Of a stretch of 64,000 nt of DNA, positions 1 to 40,933 are shown piece by piece. Origin of the DNA: Verrucomicrobiota bacterium (GTDB lineage Bacteria; Verrucomicrobiota; Verrucomicrobiia; Limisphaerales; VHDF01). The translations under genes and the position numbers were made by a program. The stretch is from NCBI GenBank assembly GCA_016871495.1, contig VHDF01000020.1:1-64000 (forward strand), written 5' to 3'. Numbering within the stretch: the stretch's first letter is position 1; each line of letters begins with the position of its first letter. The notes under the pieces were generated by a model, which worked only from the letters and a program-made list of their open reading frames with translations, did no database searches and was not told the DNA's origin.

Positions 1-510
1 AGGCTCGCGGACTGATTCTTGGAGTTTGCCGCCGCCGATGATGTCGCCAACGGGGGAGTCCTGCTGGCCTTGCCTGCGCTGCTGTCGGAGGGACTGTTGC
101 GACATACGCGTGAGCATTACACGCTGCAGGACGCCGCCATCCACCAGATGTGCATCCTCCTCAATGAAATAGAAACCGTCTTTCCGACCACCCAACTCCG
201 TCTCATCTACCGCCAGGTCGGCTCATCCTGATTCCACCCGAGGTCAGGATGTCTGAGCCTGGAGCAAGTTGGACCTTCGCGAACGCGGTCGCCATCAGGA
301 AATCGCGGCGCAAATCCGGTCCAACCAGGGAATGGTCTTAAAAATTCTAACGATGGATCGGGACAACGAGCAGGGGTTGTTGCGCAAAGGGCTGCTCCCG
401 CCCCGCGCCCAGTCTTCCGCTCGCGGTCAAGAGTCTGGATTCGTCGCTCATACCTACCGACGGCATGCGCCTCCTTCGCGGGGCGCCTGAGTTCCCAGCC
501 CCCTCTTCCG

Positions 511-1443
511 ATGCCGATCGAGAAAATCCTGGTCCTCGAAGACGATTCTATCTTCCGCAAGAACCTCGAGCTGCAGCTTCGCGAGAGGCGTTATGACGTC
601 GTGAGCGCGGAAACCCTTGCCGAGGCGGAGGAGAAGCTCGCGCGCGACTCCTTCGACCTCATGATGGTGGATATCCGGCTGCCGGACGGGGACGGTTCGT
701 CCCTGTTGGCCACGATGCAGGGACGTCCATCCCAGCCCCTGCTGGTGATGATGTCGAATTTCGGCAACATTCAGTCCGCGGTGGAATGCATGCGCAACGG
801 GGCCATCGATTATCTGGCGAAGCCCTACACGCCTGCCCAGCTTGATTTCACGCTGAAGAAAGCCGAGCAATACAACCAGCTGGTCAAGGTCAACCGGTTT
901 TTCAATCACGATGAGGGGCAAGACGGGGGCGGCGAATTGCTGGGACGCAGTGCGGCCATGGAGCAGCTCCGGCAATTGATCCGCAAAGTGGCTCCCACCC
1001 AGGCGACCGTGTTGATTCAAGGGGAAAGCGGCACGGGCAAGGAGCTCGTGGCGCGCGCCCTCTACCGGCAGAGCCCGCGCGCCGGAGCGGCTTTTATCAA
1101 AATGAATTGCGCGGCGGTTCCCGAGAATTTGATCGAGAGCGAGTTTTTGGGGCACGAGAAGGGTTCATTTACCGGCGCCTTGTCGAAGCGGGAAGGCCGG
1201 TTCGAGCTGGCTCACGGCGGCACGATCCTGCTCGATGAGGTCAGCGAGGTTTCGCCGTCGATCCAAGCCAAACTCCTGCGCGTGCTTCAGGAGCGTGAAT
1301 TGGAGCGTGTCGGAGGCAACCGCACGCTGGCCGCGAAAATGCTGGATATCAGCATCCGCACCCTGCGCAACAAGTTGAACGATTACGCCGGACGCAACGG
1401 CAGCCCTCAGGAAATCGAGGTGGAGGAATCCGCCGAGGCCTAA
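511..1443 (+). CDS. Sigma-54-dependent response regulator (NtrC family: REC domain + AAA+ domain + Fis-type HTH). The AAA+ domain is truncated in frame.
   Basis: N-terminal receiver motifs (LVLEDD..., MMVDIRLPDGDG). Walker A GESGTGKE and a GAFTGA-like 'GSFTGA' motif are present, and the protein ends in a Fis-type HTH (GNRTLAAKMLDISIRTLRNKL). It is only 310 aa, and the sequence jumps from 'ERVGG' straight into the HTH. Confidence 0.8.
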   Translation: MPIEKILVLEDDSIFRKNLELQLRERRYDVVSAETLAEAEEKLARDSFDLMMVDIRLPDGDGSSLLATMQGRPSQPLLVMMSNFGNIQSAVECMRNGAIDYLAKPYTPAQLDFTLKKAEQYNQLVKVNRFFNHDEGQDGGGELLGRSAAMEQLRQLIRKVAPTQATVLIQGESGTGKELVARALYRQSPRAGAAFIKMNCAAVPENLIESEFLGHEKGSFTGALSKREGRFELAHGGTILLDEVSEVSPSIQAKLLRVLQERELERVGGNRTLAAKMLDISIRTLRNKLNDYAGRNGSPQEIEVEESAEA

Positions 1444-1486
1444 TCCGGTTTGGGTCCGCGACCCTCCGCGGGAATCGCCCGGGGAC

Positions 1487-1852
1487 TCAGCCCGGTCCCC
1501 GATAGACGCAGCGAGAGGCGCAGGTCTCCGCCACCAGCACCTCCGAAAGCAAGGGCAACCCCGGCTTCAGCCTTTCCCAAATCCAGCGGGCCAAGTTCTC
1601 GCTCGTGGGGTTTTCCAGCCCCGGCACTTCGTTCAAGTAATGGTGGTCCAATTGCGCCATGAGCGGGCGAAAGGCTTCCTTGATATCGGCGTAATCCATG
1701 ACCCAGCCCAGGCGCGGATCGCATTCCCCTTCGACGGCCACCTCCACTCGGAAACTGTGCCCGTGCAACCGGTGGCACTTGTGGGTGGACGGCAGCAGCG
1801 GCAGGCGATGCGCCGCTTCGAATTGAAAGGTCTTTCGCAATTCCATTTTCAT
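1487..1852 (-). CDS. queD: 6-carboxy-5,6,7,8-tetrahydropterin synthase / 6-pyruvoyl-tetrahydropterin synthase family (QueD-like)
   Basis: A 122-aa protein starting MKMELRKTFQFEAAHRLP and containing ...CHRLHGHSF...EVAVEGE, which are the zinc-binding and catalytic motifs of the PTPS/QueD family. The start was trimmed to the internal ATG at 1852. Confidence 0.8.
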   Translation of the reverse strand: MKMELRKTFQFEAAHRLPLLPSTHKCHRLHGHSFRVEVAVEGECDPRLGWVMDYADIKEAFRPLMAQLDHHYLNEVPGLENPTSENLARWIWERLKPGLPLLSEVLVAETCASRCVYRGPG

Positions 1853-1859
1853 CGACAGT

Positions 1860-3221
1860 TCAATGTTCCCAATCGGTCCACTGGACGAGTTCCGCCAGGC
1901 CAAGACGTCCGTCGTGGCGCCACGCTGCCGGAGGTTGCTGCATGCGGCCCAGAGGACAGACACGGCTAACGCCCCATCGCGCGAGGCGGTACACGATTTC
2001 CGGCGCGTCCCCGTCATGGACGGCGAGGCCCACGGTCGAAACTTGGCCCCGCACGACGTCCGCCGCCTGGAGCATGTCGTCCACCGACCTCACCCCCTTG
2101 ACATAAATGAAGCGGTGCAAGCAGGACTTCTGAAACTGAGGGTCTTGTTCGAAGATGACGGTCCAGGCGGTGGAATTCTCGCTTTTCCAGAGTTGCGTGC
2201 CGGTGCCTGCCGAGGCCCGGATTTCGTAAAGCCCTCGCAGCCGCGTGATGGTGGCCGACACTTCGGGCGCGAGCACTGCGCGTGGCTCCTCCGATTCGAC
2301 CCGATCCAATTCCTGCGCGAGCTTCTCCGCGAAGGACTCCGGACTGGCGGCGCCGCCTTCCTCGACGTAGATCACCTGCGGGGAAAGACAGCCCAATTGA
2401 TCCCACGTGGCCACGTCTGCCGCCGCTTTGCCCGCCAGGCGGCCGAGATTGTGGGGGACCAGCAGGTCTTTGCTGATGAACGCGAAACTGAGCCGGTTGC
2501 CGAAGCCGAGGAACCGCACTCCCGCCGGCACACGCGAACGGATGCTTATCAGCGTTTCGTCCTGGCCCGCCGCGGTCACGCAGCCGGATTCGGCGATCAA
2601 GGCATCGGTGAGCTCCTGTTGTTCCGAAGACCATTCGGCGAATTCGAGGCAGGATCCAACGCGTGAATCCAGAGCATGCAGGGCATGCGCGAAAACGCGC
2701 GGAATCAGCGAGGTTCCAGGAGAACAACGGAAAAATTGGGAGGACTTGGCCAGCAGTCCGAGTACCATCGACTGCAGCGCGGAAACCGGCAGCAGCCGCG
2801 GAGTGATGTGCCCGATCATCTCGGGCCCCGTCGCGACCGACGATTTATTCGCGCGCTGTTCCACGGGTGTGGAGCAGATTTCGTCCAGGCGGCGCTCGTG
2901 TCCCAAGTCCTGGCGCAGGAGATCCAGGATCGAGTCTCGCGTGAGCGATTCGAAAAAGCGGTCCAATCCCGAGGCCAGCGAAGCCGGAGAAAGACCGGTA
3001 TGGGCGGGACCCTGGGTGAGCATCCGCTGCCGAAACGGATTGGTGGGATGCCGGCATTCCTCCCCGAGCGAGGCGATGAGGGAAACGAGAGAGGAAGTAC
3101 TCATCGTTTCGAGGTACCGGGCGCGGTTTCTTTTCACCGCAATGGACGCCTCGCGCACGATGCGAGGATCCAGGACCGCCTCGGGCGGCATGTCAGCGAG
3201 ATACAGGGCGGGGAATTCCAT
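1860..3221 (-). CDS. LuxC-like acyl-CoA reductase (aldehyde-forming) family protein
   Basis: 453 aa with a probable catalytic Cys in 'WDQLGCLSPQVIYVE'. The size matches the aldehyde-dehydrogenase-like LuxC fold, and it sits immediately downstream of a LuxE-like adenylating enzyme. Confidence 0.5.
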   Translation of the reverse strand: MEFPALYLADMPPEAVLDPRIVREASIAVKRNRARYLETMSTSSLVSLIASLGEECRHPTNPFRQRMLTQGPAHTGLSPASLASGLDRFFESLTRDSILDLLRQDLGHERRLDEICSTPVEQRANKSSVATGPEMIGHITPRLLPVSALQSMVLGLLAKSSQFFRCSPGTSLIPRVFAHALHALDSRVGSCLEFAEWSSEQQELTDALIAESGCVTAAGQDETLISIRSRVPAGVRFLGFGNRLSFAFISKDLLVPHNLGRLAGKAAADVATWDQLGCLSPQVIYVEEGGAASPESFAEKLAQELDRVESEEPRAVLAPEVSATITRLRGLYEIRASAGTGTQLWKSENSTAWTVIFEQDPQFQKSCLHRFIYVKGVRSVDDMLQAADVVRGQVSTVGLAVHDGDAPEIVYRLARWGVSRVCPLGRMQQPPAAWRHDGRLGLAELVQWTDWEH

Positions 3222-3242
3222 ATCGCATCCACTCGAATAGCA

Positions 3243-4349
3243 TCAGGGCGCGCTCAGACTGCATCCCCGGGGTTCGGCGTTCGCGGAGCGTCCCCGCAGT
3301 TCGAAGGACTGGCCGTGGGCGATGACGAGATCTTCCGTTTGAAGCGCGCACACGGAGCCCACGTTGGCGAGATCCAAGACGCGAAGCAGTCCCGTTTCGC
3401 CGTCTGGAACCGGACGCTCGGTCTCTGGAGAAACGACTTGGATGCGGGCCCAGGGAGGGAATTGAAAACGGCGGTTTGCGGACGGGGCGAGGCCTCCGGC
3501 GGCGTCGTAGGCTTGGGAGCTGAGTTCGCACATGCCATATTCGCATAGGATTTGCTCGCGCGGCAGGCCCAGGAACTTCGAGAGCCGGTCATGCAAGAGT
3601 TCCTTCGGCCATGCGTGGGAGCGTCCCTTGTAGCCTCCGGTCTCCATCAACCCCGATCCCGGCGGGAGTGAAAAGGTCAGGCCTGCCCGGGCGAAATATT
3701 CCAGGGCATGGACGAACATGAACGCTGTTCCCAGGAGCAGCGCAGGAACTCCGTCGTGGCAGGAGCGGTGCAGGGCGTCGCTCAGTCGCTTCAAATCGAG
3801 ATGCCAGAGGCCTGCCGGATCGGCCATGGCCACATATTCCGCGCGGATCCAGGGGTGCCGCTGCTTTACCGTCTCGAACATGTGAACGAGCGAGGAGTGT
3901 GGCGACTGCCGTGGGGAGGGGCTGAGACAAAGCAGGTGAGCGCTCTGAAGGGAGGGGGCGAGCACCGCGTGCTGGAATCCGCGCCACAGTGAAACTTCAT
4001 AGACGTCCAGCGAGGCCGCATGGTGATGGTGCCGGCTTGGCGTCGCTCCGGTGGTTCCGCTGGAATGAAAGGTCGCGATCGTTTCTTCGTCGGGAAACGC
4101 GCGGAGGTTCTGTTCCTTGAAAGCGGCGAGGGGAATCGCGGGTATTTCGGTCCAGTGTCCTGGTGTTGCCTCCTTCTTTTGCCGGGATTGAATCCAGCGG
4201 CGATAGGGAGTGACTTGTTCCCATTGCCGGGCAAACAGGCCCAAAGCCAGTCGATCAAACTCTTCTTCCCGGGGGGCATCCTTCGGGAAATGGCGGATCC
4301 ATTCGAGAATCGATGGATTGAGGGACGGGCAGGCGGGGTGGGAAGGCAT
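3243..4349 (-). CDS. LuxE/PaaK-like adenylate-forming enzyme (acyl-protein synthetase family)
   Basis: Carries the 'SSGTTG' AMP-binding signature. About 369 aa from the internal ATG at 4349. Paired with the LuxC-like gene. Confidence 0.5.
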   Translation of the reverse strand: MPSHPACPSLNPSILEWIRHFPKDAPREEEFDRLALGLFARQWEQVTPYRRWIQSRQKKEATPGHWTEIPAIPLAAFKEQNLRAFPDEETIATFHSSGTTGATPSRHHHHAASLDVYEVSLWRGFQHAVLAPSLQSAHLLCLSPSPRQSPHSSLVHMFETVKQRHPWIRAEYVAMADPAGLWHLDLKRLSDALHRSCHDGVPALLLGTAFMFVHALEYFARAGLTFSLPPGSGLMETGGYKGRSHAWPKELLHDRLSKFLGLPREQILCEYGMCELSSQAYDAAGGLAPSANRRFQFPPWARIQVVSPETERPVPDGETGLLRVLDLANVGSVCALQTEDLVIAHGQSFELRGRSANAEPRGCSLSAP

Positions 4350-4507
4350 GCGGTTTTGGCGAGGGCGGAAGGCTGGTTGGCCGCGACAGCCTGGGATGTG
4401 GGGTGGAAAAGGAGAGGAGCGTCGGGGTGGGCGGTCTCGCCACCATGGAGTGCTGATTTCGGCAGGCGGTTGAGGGGAGGGGAGTGCCGTGTCGAGTTGT
4501 TTCGCCC

Positions 4508-5410
4508 TCACCATCGAATCGTTTTGGGGAAATACTCGGCGATCAAATCGTCGTAGAAGGGGCGCAGTTTCTCCACATCCGGAGCTTCATGGCTCTTGGT
4601 GTAAAGATCGTAGGGGTTGAACGCCTGGACCCATTTGAGGTTGGCGCGATCCTGGTCGTTGAGCAGGTGTTGATAGGCGCCTTCCCGATGCCACGGGTAA
4701 AAAGAATGGTAACGCAGCATGTAGAGCGCTTCCTGCGGCAGGTAATCCTTGGTCACGTGATAAATGTATTCGTCGTGGCCCCAGGAAATGTGGACGTTAT
4801 CCAGTCCGCAACCATTTTTATACACGCCCAGGCTGGTTTGGAACCGGGACTCCTTGGAGTCTGGATTGTCGTGGAAGAAAGGATGGAAAACGATGGTGTC
4901 GGAGTAGGCGCAGCCGACAGGGAACGTATCGCCCACCACCGCCCATTGGGGTTCGCCATAGAGGCAGAGGATCTTGCCGAGATCATGAACCAGGCCTGCC
5001 AGGATAAACCAGCGTGGGTGACCGTCCTGCCGGATTTGCTCCGCGGTTTGGAGCAGGTGTTGCAACTGGGACAGATCCGTATCGGGATCGCTGTCATCGA
5101 CCAGGGTGTTGAGGAACTCCATGGCCTCCCAGATCCCCATCTGCTTGCGACGGAGGGAGAGGAAATCTTTCTTCTTGGAGAGGACGAAATCGTAGGTTTG
5201 CCGATGATGGTTTTGCCGGTAGAATTCGCGGACGGAGGGGCGGGCGTTGGCTTCGTAGTTTCGGAACTGTTCCTTCTTCTTGGCTGGGTCGGTCGCTTTA
5301 AAGGGAGTGGTCGCCACCGCGGTCGTCGCGGGTTCGGGGTACCGCTCTTTGACAAATTCTTCCCATTCTTCGAGGCTTTGCAGCGGTTGGTCGGACGAAG
5401 GCTGTTGCAT
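4508..5410 (-). CDS. myo-inositol oxygenase (MIOX, HD-domain di-iron oxygenase)
   Basis: Strong similarity to eukaryotic MIOX across the protein: [79 protein letters not shown]. The start was placed at the internal ATG at 5410 (MQQPSS...). Confidence 0.85.
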
Positions 5411-5604
5411 AGGATTTCGATAAAACGCTCCCGAATCATGGCGGCGAGGCGCGACTTCCGGCAAGCCACAAAACGTGGCCTTCCAGCCTGGCGGTGCATC
5501 CCGAAGTTGTCTGGAGTGTGGCGCAGGCTGCCCAGCCTGCCGTCTCGCCGACGGCCCGGCGGGTGAAGAACCAGGCCCTTCCATGCTCTCCAGGCGCCTG
5601 GAGA

Positions 5605-5733
5605 GCCTATTTCATGCACGGGACGCCCGGTGAGGACACCGGGCCTACAAACACGGAGGCAGTCGAGATTGTAGGCCGCGTGCCCTCACGCGGCGCACTG
5701 TCGCGGATTCAAGCTCAGTATGAAATATGCGGG
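5605..5733. repeat. Family-2 palindromic intergenic repeat, copy 1 (~130 bp, REP/MITE-like)
   Basis: Near-identical to 37599..37729 (about 85-90% identity). Termini are inverted (tatttcat...atgaaata) and there are internal hairpins (cccggtg/caccggg; ggcctacaa/ttgtaggcc). Confidence 0.6.
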
Positions 5734-5875
5734 CTAGTCCCTTCGTCGCCCCGCAGGCTGGGCAGCCTGCGAAACAGCAGACAGGGCTGCCTGCGTGACC
5801 AGGACAACCCGGTCACCGACAACCTCTTGATGCACCGCCGGCGTGGCCATGCCAAGCCCGGCGGAGGGATCCGGT

Positions 5876-7306
5876 TCAGGCGAGCAGGCCTGGCACGACT
5901 TCTCCGGCGATTCCGGTCAATCGCATGTCCAGGCCTTGAAAACGGTGGGAGAGCTTGCGGTGGTCGAATCCCAGCAGGTGAAGCAGCGTGGCATGCAAGT
6001 CGTGCACGTGGACCGCGTCGCGAACCGCATTGAACCCGAGTTCGTCGGATTCGCCATGGACGTGTCCGCGCTTCAGGCCTCCCCCGGCCATCCAGATACT
6101 GAAAGCGCGGTTGTGATGGTCGCGTCCGTCGTTGCCGCCTTGCACCATGGGGGTGCGGCCAAACTCCCCGCCCCAGAGGACGATTGTGCTGTCGAGAAGT
6201 CCCTTTTGTTTCAGATCCTTGATCAAGGCCGCGCTGGCGCGGTCGGTGTCCACGCAGTTCTGTTTGATGGCCTTGGTGAGATTGCCGTGCTGGTCCCACG
6301 CTTCATGGAAGAGTTGCACGAAGCGGACGCCCCGTTCGGCCAGGCGCCGGGCGAGGAGGCAATTCCGCGCAAAACCGGGTTGTTTGGGATCTTGGATGCC
6401 GTAGAGATCGAGCACGTGCCGGGGTTCTTTGGAGAGATCGAGCAATTCCGGCGCGCTCGTTTGAAGTTGATAGGCCATCTCGTAGTTCTGGATGCGCGCG
6501 GCGGTTTCGGGATCGCCGTTTACGTTCAGTGAGGCCTGATTGAGCTCGCGGAGGGTGTCGAGCGAGGCGCGCTGGGTTTCCAGGTCGAAGCCCCGGGGAT
6601 TGGACAAATAGAGAAGGGGATCGCCGGTCGGACGCAAGGGAATGCCCGAGTAAAGCGTGGGCAGGAATCCGCACCCGTAATTGCTGGCACCGCCGCTGGT
6701 TCCTTTGGCGGATGTCAACACGACATACCCGGGCAGATTCTCACCCTCGGATCCGAGGCCGTAGAGCGTCCAGGAACCGAAACTGGGCCGGCCGAAAATC
6801 TGCGAGCCGGTGTTCATCATGATCTGGGCCGGCGCGTGATTGACGGCCTCGGTCTGCATCGTTCGCACGAGGCAGAGTTCATCGGCGACTTCGGAGGTGA
6901 ACGGGAGGATTTCGCTCAGTTCCATCCCGCACTGGCCGCGCGGCGCGAATTTGTATTTCGGACCGAGCAAGGCCGAGTTCGGTTTAATGAAGGCGGCCCG
7001 GTAATCCTTCAGAAGATCCGCGGGCGGGAGTTGTCCGTCGCGTTTGGTCAGTTCGGGTTTGGGGTCGAACAATTCCAAATGGCTGGGGGCACCCGCCTGG
7101 AACAGATAAATGACGCGCTTGGCTTTGCCTTGGAAATGGGGCGCTCGCGGGGCGAGGGGATTGCCGGGCGATTTCGACGGACGCTTTTCGCGAGCCAGGA
7201 GTGATTGAGTGGCCAGGGCGGCCATGCCGACGCCGCAATCCCGGAAGAACCATCGGCGCGTGATGAGCCTGGCCGTTTCCCGCCGGATTTCTTGGGCTAA
7301 GTTCAT
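5876..7306 (-). CDS. DUF1501 family protein (sulfatase-like fold) with a TAT-type signal
   Basis: N-terminal 'TRRWFFRDCGVGMAALA' signal, and C-terminal DUF1501 motifs (VLWGGEFGRTP, DHH...). It is the typical partner of the adjacent PSCyt/PSD gene. Confidence 0.85.
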   Translation of the reverse strand: MNLAQEIRRETARLITRRWFFRDCGVGMAALATQSLLAREKRPSKSPGNPLAPRAPHFQGKAKRVIYLFQAGAPSHLELFDPKPELTKRDGQLPPADLLKDYRAAFIKPNSALLGPKYKFAPRGQCGMELSEILPFTSEVADELCLVRTMQTEAVNHAPAQIMMNTGSQIFGRPSFGSWTLYGLGSEGENLPGYVVLTSAKGTSGGASNYGCGFLPTLYSGIPLRPTGDPLLYLSNPRGFDLETQRASLDTLRELNQASLNVNGDPETAARIQNYEMAYQLQTSAPELLDLSKEPRHVLDLYGIQDPKQPGFARNCLLARRLAERGVRFVQLFHEAWDQHGNLTKAIKQNCVDTDRASAALIKDLKQKGLLDSTIVLWGGEFGRTPMVQGGNDGRDHHNRAFSIWMAGGGLKRGHVHGESDELGFNAVRDAVHVHDLHATLLHLLGFDHRKLSHRFQGLDMRLTGIAGEVVPGLLA

Positions 7307-7308
7307 AA

Positions 7309-10300
7309 TCAATGCTTGGTCAGAGTTTCGTCGAGATTGAGGAGCACGCGCGAAGCGACCGCCCATGCCGCCGCGTCCCGGGGGGTGGTCTTTTCGGGAA
7401 GCGAGGCTCGCCGGGAAGGGTCGCCGGTGGCGAGTTCGTTGGCATTCAGCCAGCCTTCGGAGATCTTCTTCCGGCGGGAATCCAGGAGTTCCAGCAACGC
7501 TTGTTTTTCGGAAGGACGCGGGGCGCGTCCGACGCAAAGTTGGTACGCGTAGTCGGCTCGCCGGGCATCCGTGGCACCGCCTTCACGGAGGATGCGCAGC
7601 GCGAGGGCTTGCGAAGCTTCGACAAACACCGGTTCGTTCAGAGAAGCAAGCGCGGCCAGCGGCGTGTTGGAGCGGGGCCGGCGGGCGCAGGATGTGTCGG
7701 CGTTCGGAGCGTCAAATGTGGAAAGCGCGGGATCCGGCATCGACCGCTTGCGAAACACATAGAGCGACCGGCGGTAACGCTCCGGTCCCTGCGCTGGAAT
7801 CCAGTAGTCCATTCCGAAAAAATTGAAATCCAGCACGTTTTGAGGCACCGGGGGAAAAATGCTTGGTCCTCCGATGCATGGGGAAAGCAATCCTGAAGCG
7901 GCGAGGGCGATGTCGCGGATCACTTCGGCCTCGGCACGGAAGCGTGGCCCGCGCGCGAGCCACTGGTTGCCGGGATCCTTTTCCTGTTGTTCGGGAGTGA
8001 CGCGGGAGGATTGGCGGTAAGTGGCCGAGGTCACGATTCCCCGGATCAGCTGTTTATGGCTCCAGCCTTTTTCCATGAAATCGACCGCCAGCCAGTCGAG
8101 CAATTCCGGGTGAGAGGGCTCGGCTCCGCGCAATCCGAAATCTTCCGAGGTCTCGACCAAGCCGCGTCCGAAGAGGGCCTGCCACACCCGGTTCACGGCC
8201 ACGCGGGCGGCGAGGGGTGAGCGTTGGTCCACGAGCCATTGCGCGAAAGCCAGTCGGCGGGGAAGGTTGCCGGGTTCGATCGGATGCAAAACCGCGGGCA
8301 CCTGAGGACGGACGGTTTCTTTCGGGCGGTTCCATTGCCCGCGATCGAGGCGTCTTGTTTCGCGTGGGTCTTCGGGGCCGCGCTCGGCGAGGTGGAGGAT
8401 CGAGGTGACAGGGTCCGGATAGGGCTTCCAGGCGGCTTCGGCCTCTTCGTTGAATGATTTCAGTGCGGGGACGGAGTGGCGCCAGGCCGCGAACAGGGTG
8501 CGACGTTGTTTGTCGGTGCGCCTGGCTTCGGGGACGCGCAGGGCGAGGATCGCCGCGTAATCGACAGGCGGAGCCGAAGGATGGGGATGAGTGGTGGTGG
8601 AGAGACGGAACCTTCCGACCATGGTGTTTTTGTCCCCGTTGTTGTCCCCGCCATGATTCATGCGCAGCGAAAACTTGAGTTTGGTGCCGCGTGGAAGCGT
8701 TTGCGGCGTTTCAAATTGAACGACGGCGACGGACTCGGTGTGGCGCCGGCCTCGTCCGCGATCCGCGCGCCAGCCCGTCAGGTCGTTGGTGTCGATCAGA
8801 TAAGCGACCGGACCTCGCCGGCGCTTGCCATCCTTGTCGAGCGACTTGTTGCTCCATTCCGGCTCCATCGAGCCATCGGGCTCCGAGAAATCCGCGGTGG
8901 CTTGGGCGAGTCGAAGCGCGGTCCATTGGTTGCTGCCGGGCCTTTTCGCCTCGACGATGAGTTCGGAGAGTGCCCAGGTGCCAAGAAAGCTTCGGCCCGG
9001 GCCGTCGTAGGGCAAATCGCCGTGCGTGAAGATCTCCAATCGCAACCCTGTGATGTTCTCCATCGCCGGTTGGGCGATCATGTACACGTCGCCAGAAACG
9101 GTGCGGTGTCCCAAGGTCAGTATGGAGCCATCCGGGAGGGTGGTGGGATGGTTCAATTCAGACGTGGAATGGAGATCCTCCGCCTCGATCACTTTCCAAT
9201 CGTACCGGTCGGAGGTATCCAAGACCTGCTTGCCCCAAGCGTCGAGTTCAGCAGCCCAGTGCGGACGCGACTCGCGGACACGTCGGTCGACATCGTCCAG
9301 CGTGGCCTGGAGTTTGGCGATGCGTTCCTGTTGCTCGGAGTTATAAACGCGGGACTGAGCGTCATAGCTGTTGTTGATGAACGAGAAGAGTCCGTAATAC
9401 TCCTCGTGCGAGATGGGGTCGAATTTGTGGCTATGGCATTGGGCGCATTGCAAAGTCAGGCCAAGAACGCTTTTCCCGAGCGTGTCCATGCGGTCGAAAT
9501 TGCCCTCCATCCGGAACTCTTCGGGAACGATGGCGCCTTCCTCGTTGATCATGCCGTTCCGAAAGAAGCCGGTGGCGATGAGTTGATCCTGCGTGCGTCC
9601 GGGCAGGAGGTCGCCGGCGATCTGCTCGACGATGAACTGGGGATAGGGCAGGTCACGGTTGTAGGCTTGGATGACCCAGTCCCGCCACGCCCACTGCTCG
9701 CGCATCAGGTCTTTTTCGTATCCGTTGGAATCCGCGTAACGCGCCGCGTCCAGCCATTGCCTCGCCCATTTCTCTCCAAAGTGCTCACTCGCCAGCAGGC
9801 GGTCCGCCAGGGATTCGACGGCGGTCCCGAGGTTCTTCCGGGCTTCGGAGACAAAGCGGGCGGTTTCCGCGGGCGAAGGAGGCAAGCCGATGAGGTCGAG
9901 GTAAAGGCGACGGGCCATTTGTTCAGGGGAGGCGGCGGGAGAAGGCCGGAGACCTGCTTTCGCCAGGCGCGCCTGAACGAAATGATCGATGGCGGCGGAG
10001 CTGTTTTGTTTTAGACGGGAGGGCAGGGGGCTCTTGATGGGGGATTCGAAAGCCCAATGTTTGGAGTAGGGGGCGCCTGCGGCGATCCATCGACGCAGCA
10101 GTTCGGTGTGCTGGCTTTTGACCGGATGCTTTTCGCCGGTGGGAGGCATGACGTCGTCCGTGTCGGTGGTGAGAATGCGTTGAAGGAGGGCGCTCTTCTC
10201 GGGATGGCCCGGGACGATGGCGGGTCCATCCGATTTGCCGCCGTGGAGGGCATCGTCGCGAAGATCGAGGCGCAGTCCGCCCTTGCGGGCTTTTTCGTCG

Positions 10301-10434
10301 GGTCCGTGGCACGCGAAGCAATGGTCGGCGAGGATGGGTCGAATTTCGCGCGAGTAATCAGGCGCGAGAGTCGACGCGAACGCGGAGGACCGGTCCATCA
10401 GCAGGACGGCCAGGATCATACAGAAGGCGCGCAT
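7309..10434 (-). CDS. PSCyt1 + DUF1549 + DUF1553 (PSD1) planctomycete-type cytochrome c domain protein
   Basis: Signal peptide MRAFCMILAVLL, then CFACHGPDEKARKGGLRLD (the PSCyt1 haem-binding motif), followed by DUF1549 and DUF1553 regions. The ORF track extends the N-terminus to 11037, but that stretch is non-coding and contains the MITE. The true ATG is at 10434. Confidence 0.85.
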   Translation of the reverse strand: MRAFCMILAVLLMDRSSAFASTLAPDYSREIRPILADHCFACHGPDEKARKGGLRLDLRDDALHGGKSDGPAIVPGHPEKSALLQRILTTDTDDVMPPTGEKHPVKSQHTELLRRWIAAGAPYSKHWAFESPIKSPLPSRLKQNSSAAIDHFVQARLAKAGLRPSPAASPEQMARRLYLDLIGLPPSPAETARFVSEARKNLGTAVESLADRLLASEHFGEKWARQWLDAARYADSNGYEKDLMREQWAWRDWVIQAYNRDLPYPQFIVEQIAGDLLPGRTQDQLIATGFFRNGMINEEGAIVPEEFRMEGNFDRMDTLGKSVLGLTLQCAQCHSHKFDPISHEEYYGLFSFINNSYDAQSRVYNSEQQERIAKLQATLDDVDRRVRESRPHWAAELDAWGKQVLDTSDRYDWKVIEAEDLHSTSELNHPTTLPDGSILTLGHRTVSGDVYMIAQPAMENITGLRLEIFTHGDLPYDGPGRSFLGTWALSELIVEAKRPGSNQWTALRLAQATADFSEPDGSMEPEWSNKSLDKDGKRRRGPVAYLIDTNDLTGWRADRGRGRRHTESVAVVQFETPQTLPRGTKLKFSLRMNHGGDNNGDKNTMVGRFRLSTTTHPHPSAPPVDYAAILALRVPEARRTDKQRRTLFAAWRHSVPALKSFNEEAEAAWKPYPDPVTSILHLAERGPEDPRETRRLDRGQWNRPKETVRPQVPAVLHPIEPGNLPRRLAFAQWLVDQRSPLAARVAVNRVWQALFGRGLVETSEDFGLRGAEPSHPELLDWLAVDFMEKGWSHKQLIRGIVTSATYRQSSRVTPEQQEKDPGNQWLARGPRFRAEAEVIRDIALAASGLLSPCIGGPSIFPPVPQNVLDFNFFGMDYWIPAQGPERYRRSLYVFRKRSMPDPALSTFDAPNADTSCARRPRSNTPLAALASLNEPVFVEASQALALRILREGGATDARRADYAYQLCVGRAPRPSEKQALLELLDSRRKKISEGWLNANELATGDPSRRASLPEKTTPRDAAAWAVASRVLLNLDETLTKH

Positions 10435-10905
10435 AGATGGTGCCCGAAATTTAGGGTGCTGAGGTCCTGTCTGTCGAGGCTCGATGGGAGGCTCCGGCAG
10501 TTTGGATGTGGCCGCTTGGGGAGATCGTCGAGCGAAAGTGAGCAACTTGAACGGGAGGGCGAGGTCATGTAGGTTGCGGCATGCGACCGACATCACGAGA
10601 CGTTTCATTTCAGACACGGAGTGGCGATTTTCTTTTCCACCGATTTGAATTCCGGGTCCCTGGTAACGCGATCGGCCTCCTTTTCCTTCGCCAGGGCGGC
10701 TGCGAAAGCGTCGGTCAGAATGATTTTGAAGCGGGCTCTCACATCGGCGGCGGTGTTGGCCAGCGCGCGGTTCGTTGTGGAAGCAGGGGACGAGCGCGAA
10801 GCTGTCGAGCATTTTAGCGGTCCTTTCGATCCGCCTGTTCCCGCTCTGCTTCTTGTGCTCCGACCACGCTTTGGTCAATGGGTTCTCGCACGGCCTGCGT
10901 TCGAG

Positions 10906-11039
10906 CGGTGCATCCCGATGTTGCCGGTGATGCAGGTAGGGCGCGTCCGTCCCGGCGCGCCGCCGGAGCATGATGTTTTGCATCCAGTGGGCGGCGGGCT
11001 GGGACAGGCCCGCCCTACCAACAACATCGGGATACACGG
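10906..11039 (-). mobile_element. 134-bp MITE, copy A (inverted relative to copies B and C)
   Basis: Terminal inverted repeats cggtgcatcccgatgttg ... caacatcgggatacacgg. Flanked by a perfect 9-bp direct repeat gcgttcgag (10897-10905 and 11040-11048). About 95% identical to the copies at 13808 and 49978. Confidence 0.75.
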
Positions 11040-14056: not shown

Positions 14057-15370
14057 ATGCGTATCTCCCCAGTCTCACGCCGTCTTTTCCTTGGCAGGGC
14101 CGCTTTGGCCGTCTCGGCCCCTTTGATTCTCCCTTCGCGTGTGTGGTCCGCGGCCGTTTCGCCCAATGACCGCATTCAACTCGGCTTCATCGGAATGGGC
14201 ACCCAGAATCGCGGGTTGATGTCCGGCTTCCTGCGGACACCGCAGACGCAGACGGTGGCGGTTTGCGATGTTGATCGCACGCGGCGGCTGGCGGCGCAGA
14301 CGGTGGCCAAGGATCATTTTGCCAAACAGGGGGGAGGAGGTGGCTGTGAGGCGTATGAGGATTTTCGGGAGTTGCTGGCCCGCCGGGATGTGGATGCCGT
14401 GGTGATCGCAACCCCCGATCATTGGCACGCGCTGATCAGCATCGCAGCGGCGAGGGCGGGCAAGGATATTTACTGTGAAAAGCCCCTCTGCCAGTCGATT
14501 CACGAGGCTCGCGCCATGGTGAAGGCTGTCCGCAAGCACAAGCGCATTTTCCAGACAGGCTCCATGCAGCGGTCGAGCAAGGAATTTCGCGTGGCCTGCG
14601 AGCTCGTTCGGAACGGCGTGATCGGGAGAATCTCCACGGTTGAAGCCTCGGTGGGCGGTCCGGGCATGCCGTGCGATTTGCCGGGCGAAACTCCGGAGCC
14701 GGGTTTGAATTGGGACCTGTGGCTGGGTCCTGCCCCTTCGCGGCCTTATCATTCCGAGCTGAGTCCCCGCGGCGTGCACAAACACTTCCCAAACTGGCGG
14801 CGTTATCGTGAGTACGGCGGGGGCGGGGTGACGGATTGGGGCGCGCATCATTTCGACATTGCCCAGTGGGGCTTGGGGATGGACCAGAGCGGTCCGGTGG
14901 AAATCACCCCAGCGTCCGATCCCAAGGCATCCTTTGGCGTGCGCGCCCGTTATGCCAGCGGAGTGGAGTTGGTGCATTCGAACGGCAACGGCGTGGTTTT
15001 CCATGGGAGCGAAGGCAAGATCTCGGTGGACCGCGGCAGGTTTTCCTTGTGGCTGGGCTCTCAACTGAAGTCGGAGTCGGCCTCCGAATGCGAAGGCATT
15101 GCCCGGGAACTGTTGAAGTCGAATGCGGAACGGCTTTATGCGAGCACGGATCACAAGGCGGATTGGTTGAACAGCATCCGCACCCGGAAGCCGCCTATTT
15201 GCGATGTGGAGGTGGGTGCTCGGACGGTGACGGTCTGTCATTTGATCAACCTCGCTTATTACCACGGCCAGCGCATGGTATGGGATCCCAAGCGGGAGCG
15301 GTTTGCCGGGGGCGCCGGAAACGCCGCCTGGCTGGATGTGCCCTACCGGGGGAACTGGAAACTGGGTTAG
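14057..15370 (+). CDS. Gfo/Idh/MocA family oxidoreductase with a TAT signal
   Basis: MRISPVSRRLFLGRAALAVS is a twin-arginine signal. Rossmann-fold start (GFIGMGTQNRG), DAVVIATPDHWHA and KDIYCEKP motifs. Confidence 0.85.
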   Translation: MRISPVSRRLFLGRAALAVSAPLILPSRVWSAAVSPNDRIQLGFIGMGTQNRGLMSGFLRTPQTQTVAVCDVDRTRRLAAQTVAKDHFAKQGGGGGCEAYEDFRELLARRDVDAVVIATPDHWHALISIAAARAGKDIYCEKPLCQSIHEARAMVKAVRKHKRIFQTGSMQRSSKEFRVACELVRNGVIGRISTVEASVGGPGMPCDLPGETPEPGLNWDLWLGPAPSRPYHSELSPRGVHKHFPNWRRYREYGGGGVTDWGAHHFDIAQWGLGMDQSGPVEITPASDPKASFGVRARYASGVELVHSNGNGVVFHGSEGKISVDRGRFSLWLGSQLKSESASECEGIARELLKSNAERLYASTDHKADWLNSIRTRKPPICDVEVGARTVTVCHLINLAYYHGQRMVWDPKRERFAGGAGNAAWLDVPYRGNWKLG

Positions 15371-16761
15371 GCCAGGATTTCCTTCAACACGCGCCCGGAG
15401 ACGTCGGTCAGGCGGAAGTCGCGGCCGCCAAAGCGGTAGGTCAGCCGCTCATGGTCCAGACCCATCAAGTGCAGAATCGTCGCATGGTAGTCGTGGACGT
15501 GACAGGGACGGTCGACGATGTTGGCGCCGAATTCGTCCGTGGCGCCATAGGTCATGCCTCCCCGCACCCCCGCGCCCGCGAGCAGTGACGTGAATGCCTT
15601 GGCGTAGTGGTTGCGGCCTTTGCCATTGCCTCCATCGCTCCAGGGCGTGCGCCCGAACTCGGTGCAGATGGCCACGAGGGTTCGTTCCAACAAACCGCGC
15701 GCCTTCAAATCGAGCAGAAGGGCGGTGATGGCTTGATCGACCCGCTTCGCTTTCGGGCGGTGCGTTTCCATGTCCCCGTGGGAATCCCAGTTGTCGTGCG
15801 AACCCGTGTCGATGATTTCCACGACGCGCACCCCGCGCTCGATGAGGCGCCGGGTCATGAGGCATTGCCAGGCAAACGAACGGTTGTCCCCGGGCGAGAC
15901 TCCATAGAGTTCGAGATCGCGAGGGGATTCGCGGCTGAGATCGAAGACCTCCGGAGCTTCCTTCATCATGCCCCGGGCGATATCGAAACTCAGGCTGCGG
16001 GCAGCCAGACGGGCATCCTCAGCCCGGGTTTGGGCGTGGGTTCGATTGAGTTCATCGAGCATCTGTTGCTCGAGTTCGCGCAGTGCGACGGGCTTGGGAG
16101 GCGGATCGAGATCGGGAATGGGCTTCGCGCCCGGCGCCAGCCGGACGCCCTGGTGCGCCGCGGGAAGGAAGGCGGCGTCCCAGACCTGAGCCCCGGCGTA
16201 GGGCAGGTGTTCCGCAAAGACGAGATAGGCGGGCAAATTGCGATTGAAAGTGCCCAATCCCATGCTCAACCACGCTCCCAGACTCGGCATGGGCACTGTA
16301 GCCGAGCCGGTGTGCATCGCCAGCGTGGCTTGGAAGTGCTCGACGATATCCGTGTGCAACGACCGGATCACACACAGGTCATCCGCGACGCTTCGAAGCC
16401 GGGAGAAGAGCTCGCTGATGGGCAGGCCGGACTGGCCGCTGGATTTGAACTCGAATTTGCTGCCCAGGAGGGGAAGCGGACGCGCTTCGTCGGGGCGCAG
16501 TCCAAATGCCGGAATCGGCTTCCCATGCATCGCGTTCAATCGAGGTTTGGGATCGAACGTGTCGAGGTGGGAGAACCCTCCGGTCAAGAACAAGACAATC
16601 ATCTGATCGGCTTGAGCGGGGAAATGGGACGGAGAAGGCGCCATCGGATGTCCCCGATGCAGCGCCGCCGCTTGGGCAAAGCGGACGGGTGACATGGCGC
16701 CCAGCAGTCCAGCCTGGGCACAAGCTCCTAAGAACCGTCGTCGGGAGAGGTCAATCCACAT
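15367..16761 (-). CDS. DUF1501 family protein with a TAT signal
   Basis: MWIDLSRRRFLGACAQAG signal. HFQATLAMHTG... and CTEFGRTP...DHH DUF1501 motifs. The start was trimmed to the ATG at 16761. Confidence 0.85.
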   Translation of the reverse strand: MWIDLSRRRFLGACAQAGLLGAMSPVRFAQAAALHRGHPMAPSPSHFPAQADQMIVLFLTGGFSHLDTFDPKPRLNAMHGKPIPAFGLRPDEARPLPLLGSKFEFKSSGQSGLPISELFSRLRSVADDLCVIRSLHTDIVEHFQATLAMHTGSATVPMPSLGAWLSMGLGTFNRNLPAYLVFAEHLPYAGAQVWDAAFLPAAHQGVRLAPGAKPIPDLDPPPKPVALRELEQQMLDELNRTHAQTRAEDARLAARSLSFDIARGMMKEAPEVFDLSRESPRDLELYGVSPGDNRSFAWQCLMTRRLIERGVRVVEIIDTGSHDNWDSHGDMETHRPKAKRVDQAITALLLDLKARGLLERTLVAICTEFGRTPWSDGGNGKGRNHYAKAFTSLLAGAGVRGGMTYGATDEFGANIVDRPCHVHDYHATILHLMGLDHERLTYRFGGRDFRLTDVSGRVLKEILA

Positions 16762-18808
16762 ATAAGAACTCGTTTGCGTTGAGCATCGCCTTGGCGAGAC
16801 TGGTCCAAACCTCGAGCTCGGCGGTCGCTCCGTGGGGTTCAGCGCCGGTGGCAGGTGCGGCGCGGCGTCCTTCGCGCAACCAGTGTTCCAGCCTTTGCCG
16901 TTCGGCGGAGTCGGGGGGTCTGGACCACGCCAGGGACTGGAGTCGCGCCAACCTTTCGGCATCGGAGTCGCGTTCGCGGCGGACCCGAAGCGCGAGGGCG
17001 CGAGCGCAGTGTTCGAGGAAATCGTGATTGAGCGCGAAGAGCGCTTGTTGGGGAACCGTGGAGACTTGCCGCGATTCAGTGGAGCTGTTTGGGTCGGGCC
17101 CATCGAACAACCCAAGGAAAGGATGTTTTTGCAGGCGCTGGGTCATGAGATAGACGGAACGGTGGGAATGATCGTAGCGTTCCTTGAAGGGCGTGTGCTG
17201 AGTCCAGGTCCACTTCTCAGGGGTGGGGAAGGGGTGCGCACCGGGCATCGATCGGGACCACAATCCTGAGACATGCAAGAGCGCGTCGCGCAAGGGCTCC
17301 GCTTCCAGGCGCCGCCTTGGGAATCTCCACAACCATCGGTTGCCGGGATCGATGGCCAGGGAACCCGGGTGAGCTTCGCTGGAGCGTTGATAGGCAGCCG
17401 AGAGGAGGATCCAGCGATGGAGGGACTTGATGGACCATCCGCTCTCCATGAATCGCTCGGCCAACCGATCGAGGAGCTCTGGATGGCTTGGGGGTGAGGA
17501 GCTGGCTCCGAGGTTGTTGGGCGTGTTGACGAGGCCCTGGCCGAAATGATAATGCCAAATGCGGTTCACCAGGACACGGGCCGTGAGGGGATGCTGTGGG
17601 TGGGTCAGCCACCGGGCGAGTTCGAGGCGTCCACTGGAACCGGCCGGGACGCTCCATGGGGATTCAAGGGCGAAGGCTTGGGGCACGCAACGCGGAACGG
17701 TTCCATCCGACTGGGCAGGATCGCCTCGCTTCTGCAGGGCGGCGTCCTTGGGGGTGCCTTCTCGAACTGCGTAAGCGGACTTGAGATCGGGAGGGATTCC
17801 TGGTTTTTCCAGATTGCGAAGGGATTTCTTGAGCTCCGCCAGATTCTTTTTCGTGGTTTCGTCCAAAAGTTTGGCCGGCAGGTTGGTGGATTCGAGTGCG
17901 CGGACCTGTTGCCTGAGAGATTCGAGTTGAGTGAGCCAGCGGTCGGTTTTGGATTTCGTGGCCGCGTCGGATTCCAGAGAGACGAATTTCTGGCGGTTGA
18001 ACTGCTTCGACTGAACCTCTTCGGATCCCGCCCAGGGGAATTCGGTGCTGTCGAAGATGCCGTAGAGCCCGTAGTAATCCCGCATGCTGAGCGGATCGGA
18101 TTTATGGTCGTGGCATCGCGCGCATTTCAGATTCAATCCGAGGAAAGTTTGACCGATCGTTTCCAGCGTGTTTTCCAAGGTGAGGTGCCACAGTTCGTAA
18201 GGCCCGGTGCCATAGCGACGGGAAAGCGCCAAGAAGCCGGTGGCGACAATGGCGGATTCACGCTCGGTCCCGGTTGCGGCGGTTCGGGCGAGGACATCCC
18301 CCGCCAGTTGTTCTTCGACAAAACGAGGGTAAGGCTTGTCCTGGTTGAAGGACTCGATGATGTAGTCGCGGTAGCGGTAGATTTCGGGAATGGGATAGTC
18401 CGCATTGTCGCCGGCGGTGTCGGCGTATCGAACGACATCCATCCAATGGCGGCCCCAGCGTTCGCCGTAGTGCGGCGAGGCGAGCAAGCGATCCACCACG
18501 CGTTCGAAGGCGTGGGGAGATGGGTCGCTTGCAAACCGGGCCACTTCTTCCGGCGTGGGGGGAAGTCCGAGCAGATCGAAAGTCACCCGGCGGAGCAGGG
18601 TGCTGCGAGAGGCGGGCGGGGAGGCAGCAAGGCCATTTTCTTGAATCTTGGCATTCAGGAACGCGTCGATGAATTGCTGTTCGGGAAGGCTGTTTGAGCG
18701 GGGTGGAGGGGTGGGGCTTCGCAAGGGACGATAGGACCATGGAAGTGCGGACGGTGGGGGCTTCCCTGGAGCTTCTGCCTGAACCGGGAGGTAAACCAGG
18801 AACACCAT
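16751..18808 (-). CDS. DUF1549/DUF1553 (PSD1-type) protein with no recognisable cytochrome domain
   Basis: DUF1549 (LLRRVTFDLLGLPPTPEEVARF...HYGERWGRHWMDVVRYADT) and DUF1553 (LKCARCHDHKSDP...ARVLVNRIWHYHFGQGLV). Signal-like MVFLVYLPVQAEA. The start is uncertain and the ORF could extend to 19027. Confidence 0.75.
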   Translation of the reverse strand: MVFLVYLPVQAEAPGKPPPSALPWSYRPLRSPTPPPRSNSLPEQQFIDAFLNAKIQENGLAASPPASRSTLLRRVTFDLLGLPPTPEEVARFASDPSPHAFERVVDRLLASPHYGERWGRHWMDVVRYADTAGDNADYPIPEIYRYRDYIIESFNQDKPYPRFVEEQLAGDVLARTAATGTERESAIVATGFLALSRRYGTGPYELWHLTLENTLETIGQTFLGLNLKCARCHDHKSDPLSMRDYYGLYGIFDSTEFPWAGSEEVQSKQFNRQKFVSLESDAATKSKTDRWLTQLESLRQQVRALESTNLPAKLLDETTKKNLAELKKSLRNLEKPGIPPDLKSAYAVREGTPKDAALQKRGDPAQSDGTVPRCVPQAFALESPWSVPAGSSGRLELARWLTHPQHPLTARVLVNRIWHYHFGQGLVNTPNNLGASSSPPSHPELLDRLAERFMESGWSIKSLHRWILLSAAYQRSSEAHPGSLAIDPGNRWLWRFPRRRLEAEPLRDALLHVSGLWSRSMPGAHPFPTPEKWTWTQHTPFKERYDHSHRSVYLMTQRLQKHPFLGLFDGPDPNSSTESRQVSTVPQQALFALNHDFLEHCARALALRVRRERDSDAERLARLQSLAWSRPPDSAERQRLEHWLREGRRAAPATGAEPHGATAELEVWTSLAKAMLNANEFLYVD

Positions 18809-19013
18809 CGCGATCAGAAACGCTCGCGAGAGTCCCCGAAACGAACCGGTTCCTTGAAGGAACGGGAAAGGCCGTCGCGGGAAAGGGATGGCGAGGTTCA
18901 CTATGAAAATGTAGGAGGGAGCTCGAACGAGCGCAATTCCAAGCTTTGCCTTTTCCTGCCGCGAGGGATTAGATTGCAGCCTCCTGGCATCCGCGTCCGT
19001 AGGGTGCCGCGCG

Positions 19014-40926: not shown

Positions 40927-40933
40927 TCGCACC

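Follow-up and report, generated by a model that had tools for sequence, protein, structure and literature searches.

A LuxE/LuxC-like operon with QueD and a conserved leader in Verrucomicrobia: a candidate carboxylate reductase system of queuosine-precursor metabolism

What would join a myo-inositol oxygenase (MIOX), a LuxE-like and a LuxC-like enzyme, and the queuosine-precursor enzyme QueD in one gene cluster? The question is raised by a 64,000-nt stretch of DNA from a Verrucomicrobiota bacterium (contig VHDF01000020.1, positions 1 to 64,000; hereafter the window), in which four co-directional minus-strand open reading frames (ORFs) for these proteins lie in close array at 1487-5410. Comparison with related loci suggests that the region consists of two units: MIOX, which would have come to lie upstream in a narrow lineage, and an operon luxE-(MFS)-luxC-queD, in which a major facilitator superfamily (MFS) gene is present at some loci only, headed by a conserved leader. 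As the best overall explanation of this operon, we tentatively propose leader-controlled reduction of a carboxylate in 7-deazaguanine (queuosine-precursor) metabolism.

The conserved operon and the place of MIOX

An earlier note on this region, made from the sequence alone, had described the four co-directional genes, and all four were recovered where it had placed them. From MIOX to QueD, they encode MIOX (4508..5410; 300 aa), a LuxE-like acyl-protein synthetase, i.e., an adenylating enzyme (3243..4349; 368 aa, with the motif HSSGTTG), a LuxC-like acyl-thioester reductase (1860..3221; 453 aa), and QueD, a 6-carboxy-5,6,7,8-tetrahydropterin synthase of the PTPS-I type (1487..1852; 121 aa), with gaps of 158, 21, and 7 nt between them. 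The family assignments of all four proteins are far beyond chance. MIOX matches PF05153 over its full length (E = 4e-114; 380.7 bits, profile positions 3-249 of 249) and QueD matches TIGR03367 with 110.5 bits (cut-off 89.25). The LuxE and LuxC assignments made in the note are upheld by matches to PF04443 (53.5 bits, cut-off 24.9; profile positions 38-385 of 391) and PF05893 (211.4 bits, cut-off 21; profile positions 4-401 of 401), respectively.

We used peptide patterns derived from LuxC to find relatives of the locus, all within one protein family, in a single metagenome scan that yielded 80 loci and underlies the statistics given here; a scan of a genome collection with a single LuxC protein returned two loci. 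The analysis set comprises 79 non-redundant loci of the LuxC family, with pairwise LuxC identities of 45-95% (median 65%). The labelled sequences are mostly from Verrucomicrobia, and labels of metagenome-assembled genomes such as ‘Proteobacteria’ and ‘Ca. Acidoferrum’ are doubtful; the locus labelled Ca. Acidoferrum (L092) has PfkB/HAD downstream neighbours in common with the unlabelled locus L005.

Across these loci, the genes around LuxC are strongly conserved. Of the 67 non-redundant loci with enough sequence, 63 (94%) have QueD on the strand of LuxC and no more than 700 nt downstream of it; the median distance is 77 nt, and the two genes often overlap. LuxE lies within 2.5 kb upstream of LuxC in 31 of 33 loci; the two genes are directly adjacent in 19 of these 31 and separated by an inserted gene in 12. 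Outside the operon core, gene content differs between loci, with the most frequent flanking cluster found at 16 of them, and this retention of the core while the flanks are scrambled points to selection on the operon. QueD, treated in the note as an oddity, is therefore a conserved partner. The conserved unit very probably consists of luxE-(MFS)-luxC-queD and the leader, with MIOX outside it.

Where the gene inserted between LuxE and LuxC could be identified, it encodes an MFS transporter, with a stop codon that overlaps the start of LuxC, or in some cases a YkuD-like protein. The MFS gene occupies this position in about one third of the relatives (L003 6733..8004, L012 6751..8004, and approximately 20 more) and is absent from the window. 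Its product most resembles MFS families for organic anions and organophosphates, although every match falls far short of its cut-off; a lysophospholipid (LplT-like) transporter was considered and rejected on account of these best matches. At about seven loci, a gene for a YkuD-like L,D-transpeptidase-fold protein is found in the interval from LuxE to LuxC or immediately upstream of the gene for the MFS protein. Two further variations concern the ends of the operon. In the related loci L039 and L066, a PIG-L-like deacetylase stands downstream of LuxC in place of QueD. At a single locus (L020), LuxE is replaced by a Nif3/YbgI-like protein (1712..2473, plus strand) that directly abuts LuxC-QueD; among NCBIfam models it comes closest, below threshold, to ‘type 2 GTP cyclohydrolase I’.

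MIOX shows a different distribution. It lies beside LuxE only in the window, in a twin contig of 99% identity (L006), and in L007, where LuxC identity is 66%. Among non-redundant relatives with at least 2.6 kb of sequence upstream of LuxC, MIOX is found at the locus in one of 33, and it is absent next to the LuxC relatives of Pedosphaera parvula (strain Ellin514, GCA_000172555.1, carries the operon), of four other long contigs, and of all 80 metagenome loci. Hence, of the gene order described in the note, the luxE-luxC-queD part is kept (LuxE 31/33, QueD 63/67) and the MIOX part is not (1/33). Nor is the gene itself rare in bacteria, as the note had it: a homologue search gave at least 8000 matches, the best 120 of which are 72-99% identical and about 300 aa long, and the few source names given among these 120 are of Verrucomicrobia. 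Judged by these matches, MIOX is common in Verrucomicrobia. Two homologues on long contigs have different neighbours; one of them follows a sugar ABC transporter.

The protein is best described as an ordinary myo-inositol oxygenase and, as predicted from these comparisons, a lineage-specific neighbour outside the conserved unit, since the leader, which has a promoter-like site just upstream of it in 22 of 39 loci, separates MIOX from LuxE. In the window, no promoter was recognisable between MIOX and the leader, and the LuxE operon may here be read through from MIOX, which would imply no functional link. Upstream of MIOX, the window contains a perfect palindrome with 9-bp arms (5585..5606; GCTCTCCAGGCGCCTGGAGAGC) that is not kept in L007. 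Nearer to the MIOX start, the window and L007 have a block in common (5459..5478; CCACGTTTTGTGGCTTGCCG), possibly a promoter or operator for this gene. Even on a conservative reading of the locus, MIOX is a clear case in which gene adjacency misleads and broader comparison corrects.

A conserved leader upstream of LuxE

Comparison of the MIOX-LuxE spacers of the window and L007 shows that they have mostly diverged, save for one strongly kept block just before the LuxE start. The window carries this block, as do all 38 non-redundant relatives for which the 5′ region of LuxE was available. Its consensus reads GGCUG-U-N-GCGG-AAAAC-CAGCC, followed in turn by a 4-50-nt linker ending in AAA, by CCGC and, after 0-1 nt, by the start codon; an example of the leader RNA, 45-60 nt long, is GGCUGUGGCGGAAAACCAGCCUGGCAAAAUAGAAACCGCAUG. 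In the window, it spans 4350..4392 on the minus strand and reads a-GGCUG-U-C-GCGG-CCAAC-CAGCC-u...AAAA-CCGC; the AUG comes directly after it, at 4349. The 5′ strand of a stem, P1 (GGCUG, 4387..4391), pairs with CAGCC at 4371..4375, and A4392 and U4370 flank these five core pairs as an extension pair. The 3′ strand of P1 is preceded by an invariant cytosine, C4376, which itself follows an A; this AC falls where class I preQ1 riboswitches have their specificity base. The loop sequence GCGG (4381..4384), the proposed 5′ strand of a second helix, P2, is present in 34 of 35 aligned leaders and is complementary to CCGC at 4350..4353, the proposed 3′ strand, which follows an A-rich tract (4354..4357) and abuts the LuxE start codon.

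We built a covariance model from 35 leader sequences and searched 764 kb with it, including the rest of the window. There was one copy per locus (36-72 bits), always before LuxE, and none elsewhere in the 764 kb; the match in the window is at 4338..4403 (52 bits, E = 8e-13). The five core pairs of P1 are paired in 100% of the alignment, with two compensatory changes, from G-C to A-U in L001 and from C-G to U-A in L028. The extension pair takes the types AU (8), CG (7), GU (5), GC (4), UA (3), and UG (1). The covariation score of P1 was reached by none of 500 shuffles. CCGC lies 0-1 nt from the AUG in all 39 loci and 4-50 nt from P1. In 22 of the 39, a promoter-like −35/−10 site is found just upstream of P1, ending 5-9 nt away in 20 of them and 11-12 nt away in two; where such a site is present, the leader would form the very 5′ end of the mRNA.

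From the complementarity of GCGG and CCGC, we infer that they form the P2 helix of a pseudoknot. The loop of the leader hairpin would then pair with the bases just 5′ of the LuxE AUG, giving an H-type pseudoknot in which ligand binding would mask the start of translation. On balance, we lean slightly towards the leader acting as a ligand-sensing RNA. In L066 (6840..6909), the loop is degenerate, with GCGG changed to GCAA and a tail of AAGCCGC, whereas in L039 (6836..6905) the leader is canonical; both are the loci in which a PIG-L-like deacetylase replaces QueD.

The known RNA element with the closest layout is the class I preQ1 riboswitch. In its segment lengths, the leader presumably resembles the Thermoanaerobacter aptamer (P1 of 5 bp, L1 of 2 nt, P2 of about 4 bp, L2 of 4-5 nt), a likeness that we take as a lead and not as a test. 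In the alignment, the pair that closes P1 (columns 17/30) is G-C in 35 of 35 sequences, U18 and C29 are invariant, an A precedes C29 in at least 90%, and an AAA(A) tract stands before CCGC. Class I preQ1 riboswitches fold as H-type pseudoknots in which the closing G-C of P1 forms the floor of the pocket, a U directly follows the 5′ strand of P1, an A-rich L3 runs into P2, and a strict specificity cytosine, with A or U before it, lies directly 5′ of the 3′ strand of P1 (PMC11625349). One example lies upstream of queCDEF in Bacillus subtilis (PMC11625349). We treat the leader as a riboswitch candidate whose layout is class-I-preQ1-like, without assigning it to this class. Searches with Rfam returned no relevant family in window positions 1..8000 (E ≤ 1) and nothing relevant across 23 relative loci in all, including those of Myxococcota described below, and the leader pattern had no matches in viral contigs.

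Reaction, substrate, and alternative explanations

The LuxE-like and LuxC-like proteins retain the catalytic residues of fatty acid reductase. A profile of the LuxC-like family matches Photobacterium LuxC (7XC6_A) with E = 3e-20, and its GCLSP motif, invariant in 11 of 11 aligned sequences, aligns with ACFST of 7XC6_A and so supplies the catalytic cysteine (Cys296 by 7XC6 numbering, or Cys286 in the earlier literature). In the LuxE-like protein, GGYK, R354, and RGCSLS stand opposite GGWK, R355, and KGCSLS of Photobacterium LuxE (7XC6_E), with equivalents kept for Lys238, Arg355, and the C-terminal acyl-accepting Cys364; the C-terminal RGCSL is kept in relatives, one of which has KGCSL. A mechanism that runs from adenylate through two successive thioesters to an aldehyde is thus well supported by homology, in agreement with the activate-then-reduce logic proposed in the note. 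The LuxE-like enzyme would adenylate a carboxylic acid and hold the acyl group as a thioester on its C-terminal cysteine; the LuxC-like enzyme would accept the acyl group on its own cysteine and reduce it with NAD(P)H to the aldehyde.

Several features set the pair apart from the fatty acid reductases of luminous bacteria. Neither NCBIfam lux equivalog is reached, with 42 bits against a cut-off of 550 for NF052244 (LuxE) and 53 bits against 750 for NF052251 (LuxC), and no luxA, luxB, or luxD was found among the window neighbours scanned. The LuxC-like protein also ends early: its alignment stops at chain residue 448 of the 477 in 7XC6, leaving it without a C-terminal arm of about 29 aa. In Photobacterium LuxC, the C-terminal oligomerisation arm P460-P488 lines the L-shaped fatty-acyl cleft (PMC9157457). 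The comparison of the acyl cleft relies on this missing arm, as a residue-by-residue comparison is too unreliable at such identity. Together, the missing arm, the equivalog scores, and the organic-anion-like MFS protein speak weakly against the substrate being a long-chain fatty acid. The LuxC superfamily is large, with 2947 clusters (50% identity) at E ≤ 1e-3 and 452 at E ≤ 1e-30.

The partner gene offers a further clue. QueD of the window matches E. coli QueD (4NTM) with E = 4e-51 and about 70% identity by eye, and QueD identity among the relatives is 67-84%. Its motif KCHRLHGH is of the CxxxHGH form, and KC[RH]RLHGH is found in 70 of 70 relatives. Motifs of PTPS-III (ExxHGH) or of PTPS-I/III hybrids (CExxHGH) occur in none of the 70, the residue after the cysteine always being H or R; a folate-type PTPS-III was accordingly rejected as the identity of this protein. 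Nineteen kilobases from the cluster, the window also encodes GluQRS, the tRNA glutamyl-Q(34) synthetase (23991..24875, plus strand), a truncated GluRS paralogue of 294 aa that matches NF004315 with 277 bits (cut-off 250). Since this gene passes the equivalog cut-off, we conclude that the organism uses queuosine in its tRNA.

The carboxylic acids of the queuosine pathway are 6-carboxy-tetrahydropterin, the product of QueD, and 7-carboxy-7-deazaguanine (CDG). In canonical preQ1 synthesis, QueC converts CDG to preQ0 in an ATP-dependent reaction and QueF then reduces preQ0 to preQ1 with NADPH. Because QueD is the constant partner of the LuxE/LuxC-like pair and the leader matches class I preQ1 riboswitches at their hallmark positions, a carboxylated queuosine-precursor intermediate would be the most likely substrate; the location of a preQ1-aptamer-like leader on the LuxE start codon makes a 7-deazaguanine role the most coherent one. 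That the substrate belongs to the 7-deazaguanine or pterin pathway is, to judge from the genes and the leader, a possibility we take seriously while holding it at somewhat less than even. Our preferred candidate is CDG, which would be reduced to 7-formyl-7-deazaguanine and converted by a transaminase to preQ1, bypassing both QueC and QueF. The full proposal, namely that a previously unrecognised variant or class of preQ1-type riboswitch in Verrucomicrobia controls a QueC/QueF-independent preQ1 route through CDG reduction by LuxE/LuxC and transamination, is doubtful. Our literature search found no mention of a LuxE/LuxC queuosine route or of 7-formyl-7-deazaguanine.

A transaminase of the kind missing from the verrucomicrobial operon may be encoded in a sister clade from Myxococcota. 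The LuxC of locus L002, 27% identical, belongs to this Myxococcota family, in which a class III aminotransferase, LuxE, and LuxC are encoded by overlapping genes at three loci in two genomic contexts (L094 4552..8236, L095 4583..8230, and L096 5585..9227). The aminotransferase scores well against the PigE, ArgD, and GabT models, and the operon has the arrangement predicted for an acid-to-aldehyde-to-amine pathway. In L094 and L095, housekeeping genes surround the operon, and FolE and RibA lie about 3 kb from it.

Several results weigh against a queuosine-precursor role. All verrucomicrobial loci represent one protein family, and the conservation counts are inflated by this shared ancestry. The only substrates of LuxE/LuxC pairs characterised so far are fatty acids. 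No que genes were found among the frequent neighbour gene clusters scanned, no queE, queC, or queF was seen in the verrucomicrobial loci, and tblastn found neither folE nor an aminotransferase near the verrucomicrobial operons. The Myxococcota loci have neither QueD nor the leader, and their proximity to FolE is confined to the two syntenic loci and not kept in the third. QueD is highly conserved in the manner of a housekeeping gene and may be a passenger in the operon. As regards the leader, P2 shows no covariation, its columns being invariant or nearly so with perfect complementarity; the minimum-free-energy z-scores are unremarkable (approximately 0); and Rfam 15, including PreQ1 (RF00522), gave no leader match at E ≤ 10 on stretches of 76-91 nt, nor in eight further loci.

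The main alternative is that the operon encodes a generic reductase of carboxylates or fatty acids with no tie to queuosine, which we consider a plausible contender, if again below an even chance. Here LuxE and LuxC, with the MFS protein where present, would reduce an imported organic or fatty acid, QueD would be a housekeeping passenger on the transcript, and the leader would provide operon-specific translational control in response to another ligand or a protein. The sole characterised LuxE/LuxC pair is indeed a fatty acid reductase, and uncharacterised pairs occur in lipid-like contexts such as the flagellin glycosylation islands of Aeromonas. The identity of QueD to its E. coli counterpart (about 70%) and among the relatives (67-84%) is what housekeeping genes typically show, no further que or fol genes cluster with the operon, and Rfam does not call the leader a preQ1 riboswitch. 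Nevertheless, a mere passenger sits poorly with a LuxC-QueD junction that is kept in 94% of loci, often overlapping or close, while its surroundings are shuffled. The match of the leader to class I preQ1 hallmark positions, the lack of the cleft-lining C-terminal arm in this LuxC-like family, and the resemblance of the MFS protein to organic-anion transporters speak against it as well.

A second alternative, that the block upstream of LuxE is an operator or promoter element acting as DNA and not a structured RNA, appears improbable. The near invariance and partly palindromic nature of its core (GGCTG...CAGCC) are in its favour, as are the unexceptional folding energies. However, the block lies downstream of promoter-like −10 boxes and hence within the transcript, the pair flanking the stem stays complementary through all four Watson-Crick types, and the 3′ block keeps 0-1 nt from the start codon while its distance from the stem ranges over 4-50 nt. 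Because CCGC is tied to the start codon at a variable distance from the stem, and the block lies downstream of the promoter, an RNA-level element controlling translation is the better description.

Quite improbable, too, is a pterin route that bypasses FolB, in which LuxE/LuxC would reduce the QueD product 6-carboxy-tetrahydropterin to 6-formyl-tetrahydropterin and the leader would sense a pterin or folate. General chemistry suggests that 6-formyl-tetrahydropterin is a tautomer of the folate precursor 6-hydroxymethyl-7,8-dihydropterin. The QueD product is a carboxylic acid, QueD is the sole pathway enzyme in the operon, and the Nif3-like protein before LuxC-QueD in L020 has the sub-threshold GTP cyclohydrolase match given above. 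On the other side, QueD lacks the PTPS-III glutamate (ExxHGH) in 70 of 70 loci, neither folK nor folP is nearby, the route would cost ATP and NADPH whereas FolB or PTPS-III needs one step, and the leader is laid out like a preQ1 aptamer rather than a tetrahydrofolate aptamer.

Finally, the four-gene pathway of the earlier note, in which MIOX would convert inositol to D-glucuronate and LuxE/LuxC would reduce the uronate (or a lipid), is already largely refuted and scarcely credible: the genes are co-directional and close in the window and L007, and co-transcription is possible given the lack of a recognisable promoter between MIOX and the leader in the window, but 32 of 33 informative relatives lack MIOX, its homologues elsewhere lie in unrelated contexts, and the leader, with its promoter-like site in 22 of 39 loci, stands between MIOX and LuxE.

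The preferred reading, a leader-controlled carboxylate reductase operon in 7-deazaguanine metabolism, would have consequences at several levels. If the leader senses a ligand, it is a riboswitch candidate missed by Rfam, in a phylum without examples among the class I preQ1 riboswitches described in PMC11625349. If LuxE/LuxC act on a queuosine-pathway carboxylate, they would provide a second route to preQ1 or form a new 7-deazaguanine or pterin aldehyde. Such a function, if true, would also be the first physiological role for the widespread LuxE/LuxC pairs of non-luminous bacteria.

Genomic setting and comparison with known systems

The cluster lies in the window among genes for a DUF1501 protein, a PSCyt/PSD protein, and a sigma-54 regulator. 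The last of these is a 310-aa sigma-54-dependent response regulator (511..1443, plus strand), convergent with QueD. Its AAA+ match covers profile positions 2-135 of 168 and runs directly into a Fis-type helix-turn-helix, so that the protein looks internally shortened; the same shortened form is found in the twin contig L006. Since the gene for this sigma-54 activator adjoins the cluster, we searched for the sigma-54 promoter consensus; matches were at chance level, with none upstream of MIOX or LuxE. A promoter and terminator scan of 1300..6000 gave counts at shuffle level and no coding-strand site within the cluster. As the note had stated, QueD stands apart from other queuosine biosynthesis genes, none of which was found among the window ORFs scanned.

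Pairs of DUF1501 and PSCyt/PSD (DUF1549/DUF1553, ‘planctomycete cytochrome c’) genes occur three times in the window, at 5876..11037, 15367..19027, and 38794..42274. Such pairing is typical of the Planctomycetes-Verrucomicrobia-Chlamydiae (PVC) superphylum, and the three pairs fit a verrucomicrobial origin. Elsewhere, a tyrosine recombinase of the phage integrase family (XerC/D-like; 19014..19940, plus strand) adjoins a protein with a prepilin-type N-terminal methylation motif and a Ser/Thr kinase, and an ORF of at least 2379 codons with a coding-like GC content at third codon positions (56864..64000, plus strand) continues past the end of the window.

Each component of the region can be set against a known system. 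The closeness of MIOX to the animal enzyme, remarked on in the note, is borne out by about 53% identity to mouse MIOX (PDB 2HUO) over 262 residues and by alignment of the HD-type metal-binding motifs HDLGK, GHDEY, and HSFYPWH. The window protein thus shares the whole catalytic domain with animal and fungal MIOX, but it is bacterial, comes from a very large verrucomicrobial family, and shows a lineage-specific adjacency to the LuxE operon. QueD resembles E. coli QueD (4NTM, PTPS-I) in sequence (about 70% identity), CxxxHGH motif, and length; it differs in ending a LuxE/LuxC-like operon rather than standing alone or beside queC and queE.

The LuxE/LuxC-like pair shares Pfam families and catalytic residues with the LuxC-LuxE fatty acid reductase of Photobacterium phosphoreum (PDB 7XC6; PMC9157457). 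It would likewise share with luminous bacteria the sequence of adenylation, thioester formation on the C-terminal cysteine of LuxE, transfer to the cysteine of LuxC, and NADPH-dependent reduction to an aldehyde. It differs in scoring far below the equivalog cut-offs, in the LuxC arm of about 29 aa that it lacks, and in having a QueD partner and a structured leader. Cascades that couple a carboxylate reductase to a class III transaminase, e.g., PigE in prodigiosin synthesis, are paralleled by the LuxE-LuxC and aminotransferase operon of Myxococcota, whereas the verrucomicrobial operon has no aminotransferase. Compared with the canonical QueC/QueF route, the proposed hypothetical route would proceed through a thioester, an aldehyde, and transamination instead of an amide, a nitrile, and reduction, while starting from the same CDG, ending in the same aminomethyl product, and using ATP and NADPH alike.

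The leader differs from the class I preQ1 riboswitch (RF00522) in being missed by the Rfam models, in a proposed P2 (GCGG/CCGC) that abuts the AUG and not a Shine-Dalgarno sequence, in an L3 of 4-50 nt that may contain inserted hairpins, in a LuxE-like first regulated gene, and in its host phylum, Verrucomicrobia not being among the phyla given for class I (PMC11625349). It agrees with that riboswitch in a 5-bp P1 closed by G-C, in the U, the AC, and the A-rich L3, and in a predicted P2 that would use the 3′ tail at the translation start. Both would thus share the design of a small H-type pseudoknot, here inferred, at the 5′ terminus of a transcript coding for an enzyme of queuosine-precursor synthesis.

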